Source of the DNA: Candidatus Micrarchaeota archaeon
Lineage (GTDB): Archaea; Micrarchaeota; Micrarchaeia; Anstonellales; Anstonellaceae
NCBI GenBank assembly: GCA_026413965.1
Contig: JAOAJY010000001.1
Coordinates: 1-53,334, forward strand
Length of the DNA: 53,334 nucleotides
Direction of reading: 5' to 3'
The translations under genes and the position numbers were made by a program. Each line of letters opens with the position of its first letter. Positions within the stretch are counted from its first letter, which is position 1. Shown here piece by piece: positions 32,713 to 40,782 of the stretch. The notes under the pieces were generated by a model. That model did not search any database, was not told where the DNA came from, and worked only from the letters and a program-made list of their open reading frames with translations.

Positions 32713-35514
32713 ATGTCCGATTTTTCAGCTGGCGGGCTTGGGATGGGCAGGCAAAAGATACTTGCCAATATCCAGATGATAAGAAGCGATGAGAATATTG
32801 GCGGGGCGATTTTGGTTGCCTTAGGCACCCTTTTCATGCTCCTCTCCTTTCCTTTCTATCCAATATATATTGTGTTTCTGCTTGCAATTGCTACTGGAGT
32901 CATAGCGTACAAGCAGCCTCCTTTTGGGACAATAGCCAGCATGGCATTGGCGCTTCCTGCGGTGGCATACCAAGCGCCAGTCTTGGCATGGGTCTTCAGC
33001 ATGGCGCTTGCAATAACCTTGTTTGAGGCATTTGAGCATTGGAAAACCATATCTTTCTTGCAGGTGGCAATCCTGATGCCATTTGCCCCTGAGCCCATTT
33101 CCCTCCTTTCAGGGTTCATCTTCCTTGCGCTGGGCATAGCTGCCATGCACTTTGGAAGCCAGCATAGCTTTGCCATCTCCCTTCCTGCCATATTCATTGT
33201 GCTTTTGCTTTCCACCGTGTGGCTTCAGCCCACCTCCTCCTTCATAACCATATCCAACAGCTACCAAAGCCTTTATGGGCCTGCCATGGACCAGCTGCAG
33301 AACAATGGCAAGCCTGCTGTTGAGCTGGGGCTCTTAATCTCAGAGATGGGCATGGCTTTTGCCTCCATGTTCTCAATTGACAATTTGAGGTATGTCTCAC
33401 CTGCCATTGAAAAGATAGGCAGCAACACCATCACTTTGCTTGCAAAAGACTCCGCATTGCCCCAGCTTGCTGCTTGGGCAGCCGCGCTTTTCCTTTGCGC
33501 ATTTTTGCCTGCCAGGTTTGAGCACCGCTACAAGCAGGCGCTTTCCTCCCTTTCGCTTTTCATAGTCCCTGCCGCAAATGCGGTTACTGCGCCGGCATTC
33601 GGCAACAGCTTCTCTGAGCTGGCTTTCCTTTACTGCGGGCTGTCGGTGGGGGCAATTGCGGTCTTGGAGCACTATGGGTTCGCCTTATCGCAGGAAAAGA
33701 AGGTGATTAGGGCAAAAAAGCAGAAGGCTTTCGGCAAATTCGGGTTGCAGGACCTGGGAGATTCTGAGGGTGTGGATTCGCTTGATGATGTGGGGGGCTA
33801 TGAGGATGTCAAGCTTGAGCTTCGCGAGGCGATAGTTGCCCCCCTGAAGCAAAAGGAGCTGACTTACACTTATGGGATAAAGCCGCCAAACGGCATCCTG
33901 CTTTTCGGCCCTCCTGGAACAGGCAAAACCCTGCTGATGAAAGCCCTTGCCAAAGAGCTTTCGCTTGGGTTCTACTACGTCAAATGCTCGGATTTGCTTT
34001 CCGAATGGTATGGAGAGTCGGAGAAGAATGTGGCAGAGGTGTTCGCGATAGCCCGCAAAAACGCCCCTTGCGTGCTTTTCTTTGACGAAATTGACTCCAT
34101 AGGCAAAAGAAGGGACGCCTACACCTCAGATGATGTTGCCCCGCGCATAATGAGCGTGCTTTTGGAGGAGCTGGACGGATTCAAGGGCAAAAAGACAGTA
34201 ATAACAATTGGAGCAACCAACGTCCCAGACCAGCTGGACCCGGCGCTTATGAGGCCCGGAAGGTTTGACAAAGTCATCTACATGCACCTGCCGGATGCCA
34301 AAGCCCGAGAGGCGATATTCAAAGTGCACCTCTCCAAGCTTCCGCGCGAGGAGAACATAGACTACGGCAAGCTTGCGGCAATGACTGAGCGCTATTCTGG
34401 CGCAGACATAAAGAACATATGCACTGAGGCTTCCAGGCTTGCCGCGCGGGAGGCCCTCAAATCCGACGCAGTGGTTCCAATAACCATGAGCCACCTGGTC
34501 TCCACCATAAAGAAAATCAAGCCCTCAGTCTCCCTTGAGCAGCTTGAAACTTACGAGAAGTTCCGCATGGACTATGAGCGCAGGACCGAGGCTGTGGAGA
34601 AGGAGCCTGAGCCTGACAAGGTCCGCTGGGAAGACGTGGCTGGCTTGGACGAGGTGAGAAGAATCCTTTTGGAAGCCATAGAGATTCCCCTTCTTCATGA
34701 GGAATTGCTTAAGGAGATGGATGTCAAGCCTCCCAAAGGCTTGCTTTTGTTCGGGCCTCCAGGATGCGGAAAGACCATGATTGTCAAAGCCGCAGTCAAT
34801 GAGCTTAAAGCCAATTTCCTATCCATTTCAGGAGCAGAGCTTATGAAAGGCAAAGACAAGCACCCTGCGGCTTATGTCAAGGAGGTTTTCAACCGGGCGC
34901 GCGAGTCCGCCCCTGCCTTGGTCTTCATTGATGAGATTGAGGCTCTTGCCCCAAGCAGAAACGAGTACAGGGGAGGCATACTGACCGAGCTTTTGCAGGA
35001 AATAGACGGAGTGAAGGAGCTCAAGAATGTCATGATAATTGGCGCCACCAACAAGCCTTCTGCCTTGGACTCTGCAATCCTTCGCCCTGGCAGGTTTGAC
35101 AAGATAATATATATACCTCCGCCAGACCTTCCTGCAAGGGAGAGGCTGTTTGCCATAAGCCTTGCCAAGGCAATAAAAGGATATGCAAGAAAGCTTGCCG
35201 CCAAGCTCAAAGGCTACAGCCAGATGGATGAAAAGCAGAAGCGCAAGGCCGAGGACATGGTGGCAGATGAGGTGCTGAAAACTTTGGACTTCAGGAAGAT
35301 GGCTGAGCTTACCGAAGGATTTTCAGGCGCAGACATAGCTTCGGTATGCCAGGAGGTCAAAATGCAGCTTGTGCGGAACGAGCTTGCAGGGAAGATAACG
35401 CCATTCAACACTGAATTTGTGGTCAAAGCCATAAGCGGAAGAAGGCCCTCAATCACCCAGGCAGACTTGAACGAGTATGCGCAATTCAAGCGCGCCTATG
35501 GAGAAAGAAAATGA
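32713..35514 (+). CDS. Polytopic membrane-anchored tandem AAA+ ATPase (Cdc48-like D1/D2)
   Basis: About 320-aa multi-TM N-terminus; D1 GPPGTGKT/FFDEID/RPGRFD, D2 GPPGCGKT/FIDEIE/RPGRFD; start could be 32743. Confidence 0.9.
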   Translation: MSDFSAGGLGMGRQKILANIQMIRSDENIGGAILVALGTLFMLLSFPFYPIYIVFLLAIATGVIAYKQPPFGTIASMALALPAVAYQAPVLAWVFSMALAITLFEAFEHWKTISFLQVAILMPFAPEPISLLSGFIFLALGIAAMHFGSQHSFAISLPAIFIVLLLSTVWLQPTSSFITISNSYQSLYGPAMDQLQNNGKPAVELGLLISEMGMAFASMFSIDNLRYVSPAIEKIGSNTITLLAKDSALPQLAAWAAALFLCAFLPARFEHRYKQALSSLSLFIVPAANAVTAPAFGNSFSELAFLYCGLSVGAIAVLEHYGFALSQEKKVIRAKKQKAFGKFGLQDLGDSEGVDSLDDVGGYEDVKLELREAIVAPLKQKELTYTYGIKPPNGILLFGPPGTGKTLLMKALAKELSLGFYYVKCSDLLSEWYGESEKNVAEVFAIARKNAPCVLFFDEIDSIGKRRDAYTSDDVAPRIMSVLLEELDGFKGKKTVITIGATNVPDQLDPALMRPGRFDKVIYMHLPDAKAREAIFKVHLSKLPREENIDYGKLAAMTERYSGADIKNICTEASRLAAREALKSDAVVPITMSHLVSTIKKIKPSVSLEQLETYEKFRMDYERRTEAVEKEPEPDKVRWEDVAGLDEVRRILLEAIEIPLLHEELLKEMDVKPPKGLLLFGPPGCGKTMIVKAAVNELKANFLSISGAELMKGKDKHPAAYVKEVFNRARESAPALVFIDEIEALAPSRNEYRGGILTELLQEIDGVKELKNVMIIGATNKPSALDSAILRPGRFDKIIYIPPPDLPARERLFAISLAKAIKGYARKLAAKLKGYSQMDEKQKRKAEDMVADEVLKTLDFRKMAELTEGFSGADIASVCQEVKMQLVRNELAGKITPFNTEFVVKAISGRRPSITQADLNEYAQFKRAYGERK

Positions 35515-35627
35515 CAGCTTTAATCTCTTATAACCACAGGAATTCGTCATTTCTGTGTTGAATAATACGGATAATGACGATATTATATATTTTTTTTATA
35601 AAATATTTTTTAAAAAATTGGACAAAC

Positions 35628-35635
35628 TTTATAAA
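35628..35635 (+). promoter_or_regulatory. TATA box (TTTATAAA) of S-layer gene
   Basis: Consensus TATA with upstream gacaaa BRE-like element; implies a leader of about 140 nt. Confidence 0.75.
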
Positions 35636-35656
35636 TGTAGCTAAAGACATCAAAGC

Positions 35657-35794
35657 CAGTCTCCTATGAGAGAGACTGACCAAGCTCTCGAGGGGAAAGG
35701 TACGAAAAAAGGAATGAAAGGAAAGAATACAGGGCAAAAGATAAATGTCGTCGATAAGATTTGTACCTTGCCCTGAAAGACGACATTTGAGGTG
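35657..35794 (+). promoter_or_regulatory. Structured 5' leader of S-layer mRNA (5' hairpin plus three crossing helices, ending at GAGGTG RBS)
   Basis: Complementary pairs 35657-63/35672-78, 35697-706/35760-69, 35730-37/35768-75, 35743-52/35779-88. Confidence 0.65.
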
Positions 35795-35799
35795 AAAAA

Positions 35800-38553
35800 A
35801 TGAAAGGAATAAACGTGAGGAAAATCGCAGCCTTTGCCGGCGCAGCGGTCCTCGGTTTGTCCGCAGTTGCAGTTGCCGACGTGGTTTATGGCAACACGCA
35901 GCTGGTTGACCAGAACGGACAGCCGACCGTGAAGATTTATGTCGGCAGCAAGGCGGCAATCTCCGACGGTGTGGCAGCAGCCAACATCGCGGCAAAGATT
36001 GCGAACGAAGCCTACAAGAGCTCCACCCTCACCGCCACCATGAGCGGGACTCCAACCTGCACAGTGGGAAGCGGAGTGAGCGGAGCAGGAACCTGCTCTA
36101 TTGTGGAGAGCAGCAAGAAGGTGACCCTTTCTGTGACCGTCCCAGGAGTGGTTGCAGGAGCGCACACCTTCAAGACCCTGATAACCGACACGATTGACAG
36201 GGCTCTGGCTAACCGTATCAGCACCAAGGAGGAAGACAAATACAACTCAACTTTGAGCTCCCCTGACACATCAAGCGTCACTACGCCTCTTAGAGGAGTG
36301 GCAAATGACCCGATCTCCACCAACCTCTACAGGATTGGCGCCTCCCAATTCACTGGGTTTGCGGACACTCAGGTAAAAGACTACCAGGCAACAGGCTCTG
36401 GCTCAACTTACACAGTCCAGCAAAGCTTCTGGGTTGGCTCGTCAAATGATGCTGTGAAGTACGACTCCGACTCCTCAATTAGGGATGTTGCAGTCAATAC
36501 CTACACTGCGATGGCTTACAGCGTCAAGTTCGCAGGAAACGACTTTGGAGTTCCTGTGTGCACTGGAGACCTAAACAGCTCAATCTCTGATGACTGGACC
36601 TCCTGTGGAACTGAATCCAACGCAAGGACTGAAAAGCACCGCGTTGAGATACCTTTCATGGGAAGCAAGTGGATAATAAGCGAGCTCAAAGACCCGAACA
36701 TAGACCCGCACCCTGATGAGACATCTGTCAAGAAAGGAGGCCAGATCAAGCTTGCCAAGGAGGCAAAATACGGCATCATAAATGTCGGGCAGACTCTTGA
36801 TGCAGGAGACTTCAAGATAAAGCTGTCAGACATTTCAGTTGCCGTTGGACAAGAAAACAAGCACCCTGCAATCATTGATGTGCTTGACGCCAACGACGCT
36901 GTGGTTGGGCAGATCCAGGTTGACCCAGGAACCACCTACACTTTCACCCAAAGCGGAACCGGCAAAAGCGTGAAAATACACGTCTACAAGACTGCGCCTG
37001 GTTTCACCCTTAATGCAAAGTGGGCTGAGATGGCAATCTACTCAGATGAGATAACCCTCAAAGACGGCTCAAGATACAACCTTGTGCCATCCAATGATGT
37101 GGACAAGAACTTCAAGGTTTCTCTTCTGTGGAAGAACAGGGACAGGGCTTCTGGCTCATCCAACAAATCAGACTCGCTGAGAGAGATAGTTGTCTACGAC
37201 ATCGACACCTTCTCAGGAAACAAATACAAAGCAGGAGACACCTACAGCTTCCTGAAAAGCAAGCCAACCTTCAAGCTCACCTATGATGGGCTTGATTTGA
37301 CTGATGACGACTATGAGGTTTTGACCCTCAACGCAGTCTCGCAGAGCACCTACAGAGTTGCAACTGCTGAAGGAGACAACGCAGTCTGCCAGCCAAACTC
37401 TGCAGATGACCTCTCCTACATTGCCAAGCTTATCAGGATAAAGACTCCTGGTGGCAACTACCTTGGAGGAACCGGATTGCTTGGAAGCAACATGGTGGAC
37501 ACCGTGCTTTTTGATCCGGTTGGAGTAGCTGGACCCGCAAACTCCTCACCAAACGGAACACAAAACCTATCTCACTACAATACTCCCAATGCAAAGCCAA
37601 AGGTCTTCTTCCAGCTTCCTGGTAAAGACTGCTGGAACTGGAAGAATTTGACATTGGAGTCCGCACCTGCATCAGGCATCAGCTCTTTGGCAAATGCGGT
37701 CAAGTTTGAGAAGGCAGGAGAAAACAGCGCTGCATACGGAGCCATCTTCTTTACAAACAACACCGCAAATATGGGCTTTGGAAACGGCGCAGTTGTCTTG
37801 CAAGAGGATGCCGGAAAGAATGACACCAACTCCAACACCAAAGTCCTAACTGCATTCCCCTTCAACACCACTTCAAGCGGAACCGACCCGTTCAAGTTCA
37901 AGAGCTCAGACTCTGCAACCTCAAAAGTTGCTTACCTGGGCGTAAGAGACAGCGCCTTTGCTGAGAAAGAACTGAAATTTGTCACTGAGCGCGGCTCGCA
38001 GGTAACAAATGTGGGAAGCACTGACGCCAGCATGAAGGTTGCAAAGAGAGTGGGAATGGCTTCCTTCACCTTTGCAACTGCCGACACTGCATCCAACCCA
38101 AGCGGAGCTGTGGACTACACTCTCGGAGTGGGCGAAAGCAAGGTGTTCGGAGGAGTGACTGTGCTTGTCAAGGCAATTGACGCCACTGCAGGCTCTTGCT
38201 CTGTGCTTGGGCCTGGAGGAGCGCCAGCATGCACAGTGGATGCTGCAAGCCTCAAGCCAGTCATCAGCCCAGACAACACCGCAAGTGTTGTGGTGTCCCA
38301 GCCGTACGCGCTCACCTCCAAGCTGGTGTACACGGACGCTGAGGCAAAGGGCGCTGGCGCAGCAATCCTGGTCGGTGGGCCAATGGTCAACACCCTGACT
38401 GCCGATGCTCTCAAGGGCAGCGAGATCGACTTGAAGAAAGACGGTCCTGTTGTCAAGGAGATCTCAACCGGCAAGATTGTGGTGGCAGGATACACTGCTG
38501 AGGAGACCTTGGCTGCTGCAGACCAGTTCATTGCTGGGATAAAGAGGAAGTAA
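35800..38553 (+). CDS. S-layer protein (Methanococcales-type S_layer_N/S_layer_C ends)
   Basis: Signal peptide ..VRKIAAFAG, IYVGSKAAISDGVAAANIAAKI, C-terminal ILVGGPMVN and IVVAGYTAEET; many N-glycosylation sequons; strong RBS. Confidence 0.92.
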   Translation: MKGINVRKIAAFAGAAVLGLSAVAVADVVYGNTQLVDQNGQPTVKIYVGSKAAISDGVAAANIAAKIANEAYKSSTLTATMSGTPTCTVGSGVSGAGTCSIVESSKKVTLSVTVPGVVAGAHTFKTLITDTIDRALANRISTKEEDKYNSTLSSPDTSSVTTPLRGVANDPISTNLYRIGASQFTGFADTQVKDYQATGSGSTYTVQQSFWVGSSNDAVKYDSDSSIRDVAVNTYTAMAYSVKFAGNDFGVPVCTGDLNSSISDDWTSCGTESNARTEKHRVEIPFMGSKWIISELKDPNIDPHPDETSVKKGGQIKLAKEAKYGIINVGQTLDAGDFKIKLSDISVAVGQENKHPAIIDVLDANDAVVGQIQVDPGTTYTFTQSGTGKSVKIHVYKTAPGFTLNAKWAEMAIYSDEITLKDGSRYNLVPSNDVDKNFKVSLLWKNRDRASGSSNKSDSLREIVVYDIDTFSGNKYKAGDTYSFLKSKPTFKLTYDGLDLTDDDYEVLTLNAVSQSTYRVATAEGDNAVCQPNSADDLSYIAKLIRIKTPGGNYLGGTGLLGSNMVDTVLFDPVGVAGPANSSPNGTQNLSHYNTPNAKPKVFFQLPGKDCWNWKNLTLESAPASGISSLANAVKFEKAGENSAAYGAIFFTNNTANMGFGNGAVVLQEDAGKNDTNSNTKVLTAFPFNTTSSGTDPFKFKSSDSATSKVAYLGVRDSAFAEKELKFVTERGSQVTNVGSTDASMKVAKRVGMASFTFATADTASNPSGAVDYTLGVGESKVFGGVTVLVKAIDATAGSCSVLGPGGAPACTVDAASLKPVISPDNTASVVVSQPYALTSKLVYTDAEAKGAGAAILVGGPMVNTLTADALKGSEIDLKKDGPVVKEISTGKIVVAGYTAEETLAAADQFIAGIKRK

Positions 38554-38685: not shown

Positions 38686-40782
38686 ATGAGGACTGTTGCG
38701 CTTATTTGCGTGATGCTTTCATTGTCTTTTGCTGCAGAATTTTCGCTTGAGCCTTACCTTTTCGCATCAGAAAAGAACGCAAGCATAAACTACACAGACT
38801 TTTCATACAACAACAGCACAGCGAAAATAGTCCGGATAAATGGAGAGGAAGCCTTGCTTTTGATTGACGGCAAGCTTGCCACAAGCACGCAGGATATTGC
38901 CGCAGCCATATCTTACTATTACCAGCAGAACTTTTACCCCTCAAAGCAAGACATGGAGGCGCTTTTGGGGTTTGCCGAGGCTTTCAACAAAAGCAGGAAT
39001 GCAAAAACCAAATTCGGCCCTGCTGAAAAGGTTTGCTATGAGCAGGGAACCCTTCTTTCCCACAAGCCGTGCAGCGACATGAAAAGCTGCACGATGACTG
39101 CCACGCTCATCTGCACCCTTTCCGGAGCAGACGGCTGCATAGTTGATGTTCTTGCAGGCCACATACTATCATACTCAAAATCCATAGAAAAGCTCAACAC
39201 TGCCTATGCCAAGTTCCAGTCTGCCCACTCAGGATTTTCTGCAGGGACGGTGGCAGATTCGCTTAATTCCATGGAATCTGCATTGGATGAGATGAAAAGC
39301 GCTGCTGATGAGGTCAAAAAAAGCAAGCTGATATTCCCTGAGACATACTCTTGCGCAGACTGCATAGGAATCTGCCCTGAGCCCAAATTCGACTACTCTG
39401 CCATAAGCTCAGGCAAGGCAAAGATAGCTGAGCTTAGGTCCAAGACCGCGCCTTTTTCCAGCCTCAACAAGGTATCTGCAAAAATAGCGCTTTCTACCCA
39501 GGAAAGGATAGCCTACAGGGAAGGCGAGGAGAAGGCGAAGATATATGAGCCGAAATACAGCGCAGCAAAGGGCAAATACGCCTCCCTCAAGGAGAAAGTG
39601 CTTGCCGCAAGGGCATTGGTGGCAGACTCCGGATTTGTTTCAGCAGCAGACTCCTTCCTTTCAAAAGAGGAGGAGCTTGAAAAGCGGGTGGCAAAAAGGC
39701 AGTTTGACGGCTTTGAGCCGCTTTTGTCTGCATACACTGATGAAGCAGCCAAGCTTTCAGGCATGATAAACAACTCCACTTCTGCATACCACTCTGCCCT
39801 TGAGGCGCAGGACAGCGCAGGGGACTTGCTGCTTCAGGCTTTGTGGAAAACCAATCCTCTTGATGGCAAGATGGCAGAAAAATACAACGGCCTTGCGGAG
39901 AAGAAAAACAAGATTGATGAAAAGCTCAAGCCCCCAATGACTTCTGAGAAATACGCTGAAATTGAGGCAGAATACGGCGCTTTTTCAAGCGAGGTGAGGG
40001 CTTACCTTGCAAGCTCCTCAAGCAGCCCGCTTTTGCCAATATTTGAGCTTGGGAACAGCTTTGGCAGAAGCTCGATTGACAGCACAGTCTCTCTTGCCTC
40101 AAGCATGGCTCCCATATCCTTCAAGACGCGCCAAAGCATGGCAGCCTACGTCCTTCCGGTTGCGCTGGGCGTGATTGACCTTTCAATCCTTGCGCTTGCG
40201 CTTTTGGCATTCGCAGGCATATTCCACCACTTCCACGGGATGTTCAAAAGCAAGCTGGCGATATCAGGCTGGGTGCTGGCTTTTGTGGCATTCGCATTTA
40301 TTCTCCTTGCCGGCTCAATAGGGTTTTACGGAATTGTCCTTTCAAGCGAAAAATATGCGTCTTTTTCCGATTTTTTCAATTCGCTCAAGCACTCCGACAA
40401 AGCAGCTGTGGTGGTCCATCAGACAGGAGTGGGCTCAGAAACTGCGAAAGCCATGGACAAATGCGCCTCTCAGATAGAATCCCAGCTTGCGATTTTGGGC
40501 AAGAAAACCATAAAGTACTACATAGACGGAAGCAGGTGCAGGTACCTTCTGCCCATGAACTCCACCAACTCCACAAACCTGACCTACAAGGAAGTCGCCG
40601 ATCAGACTGCTGAAAAGTGCCTGGACAGCTTGCCAGATGTCCCTGTATTTGACTTGAAGTACTCCGAGGCAAACCAGCCTCCCATATTCACCACTGTGGT
40701 GGCAAAGCAGGCAATAATAAAAGGCAACCAGAACTATTACAGCAAAAAGCCCATGTGCGACATAGCCAACATACTAAATTAA
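38686..40782 (+). CDS. Secreted/membrane protein: signal peptide, Cys-rich region, long coiled coil, two TMs, Cys-containing external C-terminal domain
   Basis: Composition and hydropathy read from the translation. Confidence 0.8.
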   Translation: MRTVALICVMLSLSFAAEFSLEPYLFASEKNASINYTDFSYNNSTAKIVRINGEEALLLIDGKLATSTQDIAAAISYYYQQNFYPSKQDMEALLGFAEAFNKSRNAKTKFGPAEKVCYEQGTLLSHKPCSDMKSCTMTATLICTLSGADGCIVDVLAGHILSYSKSIEKLNTAYAKFQSAHSGFSAGTVADSLNSMESALDEMKSAADEVKKSKLIFPETYSCADCIGICPEPKFDYSAISSGKAKIAELRSKTAPFSSLNKVSAKIALSTQERIAYREGEEKAKIYEPKYSAAKGKYASLKEKVLAARALVADSGFVSAADSFLSKEEELEKRVAKRQFDGFEPLLSAYTDEAAKLSGMINNSTSAYHSALEAQDSAGDLLLQALWKTNPLDGKMAEKYNGLAEKKNKIDEKLKPPMTSEKYAEIEAEYGAFSSEVRAYLASSSSSPLLPIFELGNSFGRSSIDSTVSLASSMAPISFKTRQSMAAYVLPVALGVIDLSILALALLAFAGIFHHFHGMFKSKLAISGWVLAFVAFAFILLAGSIGFYGIVLSSEKYASFSDFFNSLKHSDKAAVVVHQTGVGSETAKAMDKCASQIESQLAILGKKTIKYYIDGSRCRYLLPMNSTNSTNLTYKEVADQTAEKCLDSLPDVPVFDLKYSEANQPPIFTTVVAKQAIIKGNQNYYSKKPMCDIANILN

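Follow-up and report, generated by a model that had tools for sequence, protein, structure and literature searches.

Comparative sequence evidence for a conserved pseudoknot and a candidate kink-turn in the S-layer mRNA leader of Micrarchaeota

The preQ1 and SAM-II riboswitches are H-type pseudoknots that adjoin the ribosome-binding site, and riboswitches for metabolites as a rule regulate a number of genes for transport or biosynthesis. Pseudoknots also act as protein-bound translational operators in the T4 gene 32 leader, E. coli rpsO/S15 and alpha-operon/S4; such an operator is bound by the product of its own gene or by a ribosomal protein, and in most cases the start region is part of it. 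To our knowledge, very few cis-acting structured mRNA elements have been described in archaea, and none in DPANN archaea. Pseudoknot riboswitches adjoining the Shine-Dalgarno are reported as a known kind (PMC11625349). L7Ae binds kink-turns of archaeal 5' UTRs and represses translation through them (PMC5539422). Half-lives of 14-15 min of Lactobacillus S-layer mRNAs are attributed to their structured 5' UTRs (review PMC3666127), a raised protein yield is reported with S-layer 5' UTRs in Sulfolobus and Methanococcus (PMC11627041), and the S-layer gene ranks third in expression in a cultured Micrarchaeon (preprint 10.1101/2021.04.28.441871).

We analysed the leader of an S-layer gene of a Candidatus Micrarchaeota archaeon (assembly GCA_026413965.1), which lies in a window comprising the first 53,334 nucleotides of contig JAOAJY010000001.1. 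Homologues of the S-layer protein were found in 40/41 related genomes. The features of the locus are collected in Table 1. An initial annotation of the sequence had pointed out a TATA box, a 5' hairpin, the segments X, A, B, X', A' and B' and the GAGGTG motif, and every segment was recovered where it had been placed; the ATG follows at 35800. The TATA box occupies the same position in the upstream regions of relatives. Since archaeal transcription usually starts about 23 nt past the TATA box, the S-layer transcript probably begins at about 35658. RNA-library contigs, from four libraries of four studies, span both the ORF and the pseudoknot in relatives. Such contigs extend just 34-61 nt 5' of helix A, a weak hint on the start. 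They prove neither transcription nor transcript ends, and stretches that they leave uncovered do not count as evidence. None of the sequencing runs contains over 9% of the words sampled; the organism itself was thus not found in them, and no habitat is claimed.

Table 1. Features of the S-layer locus and its leader (positions in the window)
Feature	Position	Strand	Sequence or remark
TATA box of S-layer promoter	35628..35635	+	TTTATAAA; read from sequence
Candidate kink-turn hairpin	35660..35696	+	parsed motif in family f1
Kink-turn C-stem	35660-64 / 35692-96	+	UCUCC / GGGGA
Kink-turn bulge	35665-67	+	UAU
Kink-turn G.A/A.G pairs	35668-69 + 35690-91	+	GA + GA
Kink-turn NC-stem	35670-74 / 35685-89	+	GAGAG / CUCUC
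Kink-turn hairpin loop	35675-84	+	
X, 5' arm of third helix	35697..35706	+	DNA AAGGTACGAA, RNA AAGGUACGAA; adjoins 3' end of kink-turn C-stem
Purine-rich linker	35707..35729	+	contains AATGAAAGGAA (35713-23) and start of upstream ORF
A, 5' arm of pseudoknot stem 1	35730..35737	+	CAGGGCAA
Loop L1	35738..35742	+	AAGAU, A-rich
B, 5' arm of pseudoknot stem 2	35743..35752	+	DNA AAATGTCGTC, RNA AAAUGUCGUC
Loop L2	35753..35767	+	conserved motif G-N-U-A-A-N-N-N-U-N-N-U at 35753-35764
X', 3' arm of third helix	35760..35769	+	DNA TTTGTACCTT, RNA UUUGUACCUU; one G-U with X
A', 3' arm of stem 1	35768..35775	+	DNA TTGCCCTG, RNA UUGCCCUG
Loop L3	35776..35778	+	AAA
B', 3' arm of stem 2	35779..35788	+	DNA GACGACATTT, RNA GACGACAUUU
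Shine-Dalgarno	35789..35794	+	GAGGUG (DNA GAGGTG); outside every conserved helix
S-layer protein gene	35800..38553	+	917 aa; Pfam S_layer_C, E 1.4e-16

Within the linker, AATGAAAGGAA is a direct repeat of the true start region (35799-809). A 20-codon upstream ORF opens there (ATG 35714 to TGA 35776). We considered it as a leader peptide and rejected it; its frame, length and peptide are unconserved, and 6/58 leaders contain no upstream ATG. The distance from the end of the model hit to the GGTG/GGTA core of the Shine-Dalgarno is 8 nt or less in 48/58 distinct leaders and 11-36 nt in the remaining 10.

The order X-A-B-X'-A'-B' cannot be nested, as had been claimed. In order to gauge chance complementarity, 1000 dinucleotide-preserving shuffles of 35657-35800 were scored. 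The best crossing helix pair has a stem score of 47 (shuffle maximum 46), and the three crossing helices together score 68 (shuffle maximum 54); neither value was reached by any of the 1000 shuffles. In most sequences L1 measures 4-11 nt and L3 2-8 nt, being longer where there are insertions, and L2 is long, at 14-20 nt or more. A 3-nt L3 across an 8-bp stem is tight and makes a classical coaxial pseudoknot geometry doubtful, although the long L2 may relax it. Helices A and B have nearly equal energies when taken alone (-11.1 and -11.7 kcal/mol respectively), and it is therefore possible that the two alternate.

The pairing of A with A' and of B with B' is borne out by comparison among relatives. 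Across 54 distinct sequences, 90.3% of the A and B cells are paired against 73.5% in shuffles, and in 14/17 pseudoknot pairs both partners have changed. A covariation score of 0.415 was obtained, compared with 0.165 in shuffles, and 0/500 shuffles scored as high. When the partners were slid as a control, the paired fraction was only 34-50%. Each helix also holds in alignments in which only the other was modelled: helix A remains paired where only B was modelled, and helix B has 89.7% of its cells paired (73.6% in shuffles) where only A was. All 10 pairs of helix B changed on both sides. In helix A the flanking pairs covary (pair 6-81, for example, is AU in 19, UA in 10 and GC in 9 sequences), while the three G-C pairs of the stem almost never vary. 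Antisense scores are weak, at about 11 bits where the sense strand reaches about 80 bits, and together with the G-U pairs this points to an RNA of sense-strand sequence. The a-b-a'-b' order, with comparative evidence for both stems, is that of an H-type pseudoknot. These alignments show A/A' and B/B' to be conserved as such a pseudoknot, with compensatory changes, within a single class and there in two orders or more. The covariation that was to be expected if the S-layer leader is a structured and conserved element is thus present for A and B, and with 0/1000 shuffles we regard the element as real.

Conservation is not confined to the helices. The L1 columns of A35738 and A35739 are A in 52/54 distinct sequences. 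In L2, the columns of 35753, 35755 and 35756 are G in 50, U in 51 and A in 52 of the 54, and those of 35757, 35761 and 35764 are A in 51, U in 52 and U in 52; in L3, which is A-rich, A stands in 43/54 sequences at column 89 and in 42/54 at column 91. Since alignment by MAFFT alone proved wrong for distant sequences (A1-A3, A7, A10), no column counts are given for X or the kink-turn stems, which were parsed sequence by sequence instead.

Model R1 matched 38/151 genomes of the order, and model R2 matched 35/151 genomes of a phylum sample, with one match per genome. At 31/33 loci from the model searches an S-layer homologue begins right after the match; the two exceptions are a contig end and a false match. 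The match at G071:C1 (L063) is followed by no S-layer gene and shows none of the helices, and was taken as a false positive. A 32-nt match inside a 346-aa ORF on contig C9, examined as a second copy in the genome, was taken as chance; we read that ORF as a DNA methyltransferase from motifs in its sequence and without a family search. The pseudoknot is retained in plain form in families without any X element, and was hardly found in the big sister families (1/45 in f13, 0/25 in f14 and 0/6 in f9). The L030 leader, which the R1 and R3 model searches miss, carries a pseudoknot with insertions in all three loops that was recognised by eye only, and no pseudoknot was seen in L023, L026 and L032. 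These sister families presumably need abundant S-layer protein too, a point which speaks against a stabilising role.

The 5' end of the leader had been annotated as a simple hairpin, CAGTCTC (35657-63) with GAGACTG (35672-78). Both arms are there and the 7-bp hairpin is feasible (-9.9 kcal/mol), but the fold conserved in relatives is a kink-turn hairpin (-10.5 kcal/mol here, Watson-Crick pairs only). The two folds are mutually exclusive and their energies are nearly equal. As in known kink-turns, a 3-nt bulge is followed by tandem sheared G.A/A.G pairs, the C-stem is Watson-Crick with C64-G92 as its -1 pair, and the NC-stem continues beyond. In family f1, 25/27 leaders parse to a kink-turn (L015 and L059 fail); the non-bulged strand reads GA in 22 of the 25 and AA in 3. 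The stems vary among relatives yet remain complementary, e.g. CAUUCC/GGAAUG and GGGUGC/GCACCC. A stricter two-polarity scan found a K-turn-like site in 26/58 distinct leaders against 120/1160 shuffles, a 10% background, and this count misses L014, L016, L015, L010 and L052 and includes L025 and L090, which are likely chance matches. By that scan the kink-turn occurs only in families f1 and f15. The hairpin begins about 2 nt after the probable transcription start and lies about 95 nt 5' of the Shine-Dalgarno at 35789. The genome encodes an L7Ae-family gene (PF01248, 105 bits), and on sequence grounds the hairpin is likely to be an L7Ae site.

The third helix behaves differently from A and B. 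It had been proposed that three helices cross mutually; A and B are conserved, and X pairs significantly in this genome (-11.6 kcal/mol for its duplex with the X' window, z -3.9, 0/200 shuffles), but X/X' proved specific to a lineage. Compensatory changes in X/X' were seen in one lineage (L006) and the helix is missing from most families, while a GGUAY core of X is retained in genera g1, g2, g3 and g18. X' and A' share 2 nt, and in many relatives the X bases pair with A' as well as with X' or better. L011-type leaders favour X:A' (-13.1 vs -9.8 kcal/mol), and in L055, L019, L062, L064 and L067 this pairing reaches -12.2 to -15.5 kcal/mol (0-2/200 shuffles); in this genome it is not significant (-10.5 kcal/mol, 12/200 shuffles). 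In this genus X/X' can stack between the kink-turn hairpin and the pseudoknot.

A search of Rfam 15 with 35300-36100 (E up to 10) returned chance-level matches only, far below the gathering scores, and ten diverse leaders (E up to 1) gave a single match, whose 18.7 bits fall short of the gathering score of 50. The suggestion that the leader is a candidate new RNA is consistent with this lack of a matching family, and our literature searches returned no description of the structured leader.

Our best guess, which we hold tentatively and at a little under an even chance, is that the leader acts in cis to stabilise the mRNA and to support its translation. It would form an expression module of the protein that is most abundant in the cell. 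The 5'-terminal kink-turn would be bound by L7Ae, and this complex, along with the compact pseudoknot, would protect the mRNA against 5'-end-dependent decay; two beta-CASP nucleases are encoded in the genome. Locking the upstream sequence in the pseudoknot would at the same time leave the A-rich ribosome-binding site single-stranded and accessible. The near-invariant bases of L1 and L2, like the unvarying G-C pairs in stem A, seem to go beyond the need of a passive stabiliser, and they suggest a specific partner.

Such a partner raises the possibility, which we consider real but rather unlikely, that the pseudoknot acts as an aptamer, or as an operator bound by a protein, and so adjusts how far the S-layer mRNA is translated or degraded, for instance in a feedback loop on synthesis of the envelope. 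Its pocket, made up of near-invariant bases in L1, L2 and L3 together with the fixed G-C pairs, would then accept an ion, a metabolite, or a protein, be it L7Ae or another. Conserved, near-invariant unpaired bases of the kind expected of a riboswitch aptamer are indeed present: six positions of L2 and two of L1 are as well conserved as the helices or better (50-52/54), covariation is lacking in the three G-C pairs within stem A, and hairpin insertions are tolerated at certain loop sites only, as in known aptamers. The pseudoknot also adjoins the ribosome-binding site, as pseudoknot riboswitches beside the Shine-Dalgarno are reported to do (PMC11625349), and repression by L7Ae through 5' UTR kink-turns (PMC5539422) offers a second precedent. 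Against this, the element is a single copy per genome and always at one structural gene; no regulon of metabolically related genes was found, no conserved alternative helix sequesters the Shine-Dalgarno or the start codon, the Rfam aptamers gave no match, and the distance of about 95 nt sets the kink-turn apart from the L7Ae autoregulatory site. A Shine-Dalgarno outside the conserved helices and one gene per genome argue against a classical metabolite riboswitch. A bolder form of the idea, which we judge improbable, is that the pseudoknot is the aptamer of the first sensing RNA specific to Micrarchaeota or DPANN archaea. A small molecule or a protein devoted to this task would be held in a pocket of near-invariant loop bases and fixed G-C pairs, with helix X and the kink-turn, bound by L7Ae, as its scaffold, and occupancy of the pocket would set the S-layer protein output of these host-dependent cells.

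The multiple partners of X, A and A' could also mean that the leader has two folds, toggled kinetically during transcription or by temperature, as in the sequential or alternative folding put forward in the initial annotation. In many relatives A' is at least as good a partner as X' for the bases that directly follow the kink-turn. X' and A' overlap by 2 nt here, and the 5' hairpin is incompatible with the kink-turn fold and nearly equal to it in energy. We find a folding switch quite improbable, since X:A' lacks significance in this genome, the ribosome-binding site is hidden in neither state, and families without X keep the plain pseudoknot, so that a switch would be an add-on. It is very unlikely that the leader is a stable small RNA, cut off or terminated early, which acts in trans or is a by-product. 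In run X3, a 94-nt contig covers the pseudoknot region only, at a depth of 312 against 37.8 for the ORF contig, but contig depth is no measure of RNA level and other contigs (records 1, 9, 15 and 16) connect the pseudoknot with the ORF. L2 is U-rich in many relatives, while its longest U run here is three, and we looked for a terminator-like site and found none. Finally, the arms are inverted repeats in the DNA as well, and a 20-codon ORF lies upstream (35714-35776); chance complementarity, transcription-factor palindromes in DNA or a translated leader peptide might thus be invoked in place of an RNA structure. We hold this to be extremely improbable given that the observed score was reached by 0/1000 shuffles, that the compensatory changes include G-U intermediates, and that the antisense strand scores so much lower (~11 bits vs ~80 bits).

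The leader unites a likely L7Ae site with an invariant-loop pseudoknot, and it does so in front of the gene whose protein is the most abundant. Should it stabilise the mRNA or boost translation, as we favour, it would show a route by which genome-reduced archaea attain very high expression, and it could become an expression part for archaeal genetics. If a ligand or protein is sensed instead, the leader would represent a new archaeal class of regulatory RNA that controls the envelope of symbiotic cells.

With T4 gene 32, rpsO and the alpha-operon, the leader shares a pseudoknot placed near the start in the mRNA of one gene or operon. Its likeness to the preQ1 and SAM-II riboswitches lies in the crossing stems, the A-rich loops, the conserved unpaired bases and the place upstream of the Shine-Dalgarno. 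Unlike in these riboswitches, the Shine-Dalgarno here is not within stem 2, L2 is long, and the element is a single copy at a structural gene with no Rfam match. By its sequence the candidate kink-turn is of the standard type, like the L7Ae-bound 5' UTR kink-turns of Sulfolobus acidocaldarius l7ae and saci_1468 (PMC5539422, PMC6298567), with the same 3-nt bulge, tandem G.A pairs, Watson-Crick C-stem and NC-stem. The Sulfolobus sites are located at the Shine-Dalgarno and repress translation 1.6-fold, whereas the kink-turn here, a predicted L7Ae site, sits at the probable 5' end, on an S-layer gene and joined to a pseudoknot. It is thus not an L7Ae autoregulatory element, in which the kink-turn overlaps or flanks the Shine-Dalgarno of l7ae. 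The slpA leaders of Lactobacillus acidophilus and L. crispatus (review PMC3666127) are simple bacterial stem-loops of unrelated sequence that carry no conserved pseudoknot, kink-turn or invariant loops. Like the leader described here, they are long and structured and precede the most abundant surface protein, and the role proposed for both is the same, a long mRNA life and high output.

The leader of the S-layer gene (35657-35800) holds three pairs of complementary segments. On re-reading the window, every segment and position given in the initial annotation proved exact, and the order X-A-B-X'-A'-B' is non-nestable, as it had claimed. By a simple stem score, the top-scoring pair of crossing stems reached 47 and the top-scoring crossing triple 68, and neither value was attained in any of 1000 dinucleotide-preserving shuffles of the same stretch. 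The S-layer leader element is real, beyond chance. The 917-aa ORF that follows (35800-38553) gave a match to Pfam S_layer_C (E 1.4e-16), and its nearest homologues in named records, titled Candidatus Micrarchaeota, Micrarchaeia or Anstonellaceae archaeon, share 65-77% identity over the matched N-terminal stretches. On its 5' side lies an ORF (32713-35514) for a 933-aa CDC48-like ATPase with two AAA domains; the 698-aa ORF directly 3' (38686-40782) gave no Pfam match. The window is contig C11 of an assembly of 0.77 Mb, 87% complete.

Features of the S-layer leader, in forward-strand positions
Feature	Position	Strand	Remark
TATA box TTTATAAA	35628-35635	+	sequence read
Kink-turn fold	35660-35696		C-stem UCUCC/GGGGA; bulge UAU; GA; NC-stem GAGAG/CUCUC and loop; GA
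X	35697-35706	+	pairs with X', 10 bp, one G-U
A	35730-35737	+	pairs with A', 8 bp, perfect
B	35743-35752	+	pairs with B', 10 bp, perfect
Near-invariant G, U, A, A, U, U of loop L2	35753, 35755, 35756, 35757, 35761, 35764	+	54 distinct sequences
X'	35760-35769	+	partner of X
A'	35768-35775	+	partner of A
B'	35779-35788	+	partner of B
Shine-Dalgarno GAGGTG	35789-35794	+	3' of B'
ATG of S-layer ORF	35800	+	sequence read

S-layer homologues were present in 40 of 41 related genomes, and upstream regions were cut from 26 loci with the S-layer N-terminus. Searched blind for their best pair of crossing stems, most of these 26 regions yielded a homologous A/B pseudoknot and three (L023, L026, L032) yielded none; in L030 the pseudoknot was recognised by eye, with insertions. 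The arms diverge yet remain complementary (GGGGCC/GGCCCC with AAGCCGCC/GGCGGCTT; GTGGGCT/AGCCCAC with GCCACC/GGTGGC). A model, R1, trained on 13 sequences of the genus and one from another family with helix B as its only structure, matched 38 of 151 genomes of the order, once in each except G071. Its successor R2, trained on 40 aligned matches, matched once each in 35 genomes when a phylum-wide sample of 151 was searched: 8/10 in the window's own family (f1), 14/27 in f8, 5/6 in f15, 1/2 in f19 and 1/45 in f13, with none in f14 (0/25) or f9 (0/6). Of these families, f13, f15 and f19 come from other orders within the class. At 31 of 33 loci from the model searches an S-layer homologue starts (residue 1-4) directly behind the match; the remaining two were a contig end and a false match. 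Six more named Micrarchaeota records also carry the pseudoknot, at a protein identity of only 37-45%.

Covariation in homologous leaders, which the initial annotation had proposed as a check, was found for both A and B. In alignment A8 (67 matches, 54 distinct rows), standard pairs filled 90.3% of cells as against 73.5% after shuffling, 14 of 17 pairs showed changes on both sides, and the covariation score was 0.415 as against 0.165 in shuffles (0/500 reached the observed value); sliding the 3' partners by 1-3 columns left 34-50% paired. The earlier alignment A6 (36 distinct rows) agreed with this in its pair counts. Since both alignments had been fitted to helix B, with helix A modelled in neither, we built a third model, R3, whose only structure was helix A, and took the pair counts for B from the alignment that it gave. 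Here B was 89.7% paired (73.6% shuffled), all 10 pairs had both-side changes, and the score was 0.475 as against 0.220 (0/500), with slides at 26-59%. The outer pairs of helix A covary in A8 (e.g. AU 19, UA 10, GC 9), and its three central G-C pairs are almost invariant. The G-U pairs, together with antisense scores of about 11 bits as against about 80 for the sense strand, point to sense-strand RNA as the carrier of the pseudoknot signal.

Among the 54 distinct sequences, two A of loop L1 (35738, 35739) are kept in 52, the near-invariant bases of L2 in 50, 51, 52, 51, 52 and 52 respectively, and L3 is A-rich. Inserted hairpins occur in all three loops and mark variable sites of the pseudoknot fold; such loop insertions are typical of structured RNAs. 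They lie in L1 in leaders L053 and L056, in L2 in L012, L052, L068, L108 and L110, and in all three loops in L030. One L1 insert, GCCC-GAAA-GGGC in f8, has a GNRA tetraloop.

The initial annotation had described three mutually crossing helices. Helices A and B are broadly conserved, and X:X' is the best linker-to-L2 duplex in the window (-11.6 kcal/mol, z -3.9, 0/200 shuffles), but X is confined to part of f1. Genera g1, g2, g3 and g18 keep its GGUAY core, directly 3' of the kink-turn, and in L006 GGAU/AUCC replaces GGUA/UACC, changing two pairs on both sides. X is absent from L012, L014, L016, L052 and every family outside f1. For the X bases, A' is an equal or better partner in leaders of the L011 type and in L055, L019, L062, L064 and L067 (-12.2 to -15.5 kcal/mol, 0-3/200 shuffles). 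Given this partial retention and the pairing with A', X is a lineage-specific addition that either stacks on A as a third helix or competes with it.

A hairpin is possible at the 5' site, as had been noted, but relatives keep a kink-turn fold in place of the proposed 7-bp stem CAGTCTC/GAGACTG. The two folds compete at -9.9 (hairpin) and -10.5 kcal/mol (kink-turn, Watson-Crick pairs only). Our own parser found the kink-turn arrangement in 25 of 27 f1 leaders, failing in L015 and L059; both stems differ with complementarity kept, and the second GA is AA in three leaders. A stricter scan of both polarities gave K-turn-like sites in 26 of 58 distinct leaders and in 120 of 1160 shuffled sequences. 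The leader sites cluster in f1, those of f15 have the bulge on their 3' strand, and the other families have plain hairpins. The kink-turn-like f15 hairpins of opposite polarity (L073, L078, L086, L087) lie about 10-60 nt upstream of helix A, with CA-UGU/UAU-GA-GAU as the bulged strand and compensatory NC-stem differences between genomes. The loop of the kink-turn hairpin (35675-35684 and relatives) often contains UGACC or UGGCG within the genus and could make a tertiary contact. Given the distance from TATA box to start site that is usual in archaea, transcription should start near 35658, about 2 nt 5' of the C-stem. RNA-library contigs of relatives (four libraries, four studies; mostly <95% alike) join the pseudoknot to the ORF and extend upstream only 34, 49 and 61 nt, a weak hint of a start near the hairpin.

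In 48 of the 58 distinct leaders the model match ends at most 8 nt before the GGTG/GGTA core, and in the other ten the gap is 11-36 nt; in none is the Shine-Dalgarno part of a conserved helix. No terminator-like site was found, and upstream ORFs were not conserved. AATGAAAGGAA occurs twice, in the linker (35713-35723) and at the true start codon (35799-35809), and linker plus X resemble a Shine-Dalgarno with spacer; the linker copy appears to be a degenerate ribosome-binding-site duplicate that only part of the genus keeps. Further upstream, 48-85 nt before the TATA box, an inverted repeat TTCGTCA-N24-TGACGA (35543-35580), single-copy in the whole assembly, may serve as the operator of a dedicated transcription factor; in most relatives, similar TTCGTCA/TGACGAA words precede the S-layer promoter. 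About 35 nt separate two TATA-like A/T blocks, TTTTTTATAAAA (35592-35603) and TTTATAAA; both are kept within the genus, and the former may act as a second promoter or as an upstream A/T element.

The element is a conserved pseudoknot adjoining the Shine-Dalgarno, preceded by a kink-turn hairpin at what is probably the 5' end of the transcript, and it occurs once per genome, at the S-layer gene. The window's genome encodes an L7Ae-family protein (105 bits) and two beta-CASP nucleases. We suggest that L7Ae may cap the 5' hairpin, that the capped hairpin and compact pseudoknot would shield the S-layer mRNA from 5'-end-dependent decay, and that the A-rich ribosome-binding site may be kept free of pairing with upstream sequence by the pseudoknot. 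The invariant loop bases and fixed G-C pairs argue against a purely passive role and lead us to suspect a specific partner. On these grounds we retain two alternatives to mRNA protection: a sensor or operator, in which such a partner binds the pseudoknot, is conceivable though rather unlikely, and a folding switch of the leader is improbable.

A scan against Rfam 15, suggested initially as a further check, matched neither the window nor any of ten diverse leaders. Full-text searches on archaeal S-layer leaders, the S-layer of Micrarchaeum harzensis, Micrarchaeota pseudoknots and DPANN RNA motifs turned up no account of such an element. A preprint on the Micrarchaeum S-layer (10.1101/2021.04.28.441871) ranks its gene third most highly expressed and nowhere uses the terms promoter, UTR, leader, mRNA or upstream. 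Judged from sequence, the element is a new RNA family, a structured mRNA leader of kink-turn and pseudoknot, of a general kind already known. The suggested roles have precedents: Lactobacillus S-layer mRNAs have half-lives of 14-15 min through structured 5' UTRs (PMC3666127), yields in Sulfolobus and Methanococcus rise with S-layer 5' UTRs (PMC11627041), and kink-turns in archaeal 5' UTRs are bound by L7Ae (PMC5539422).
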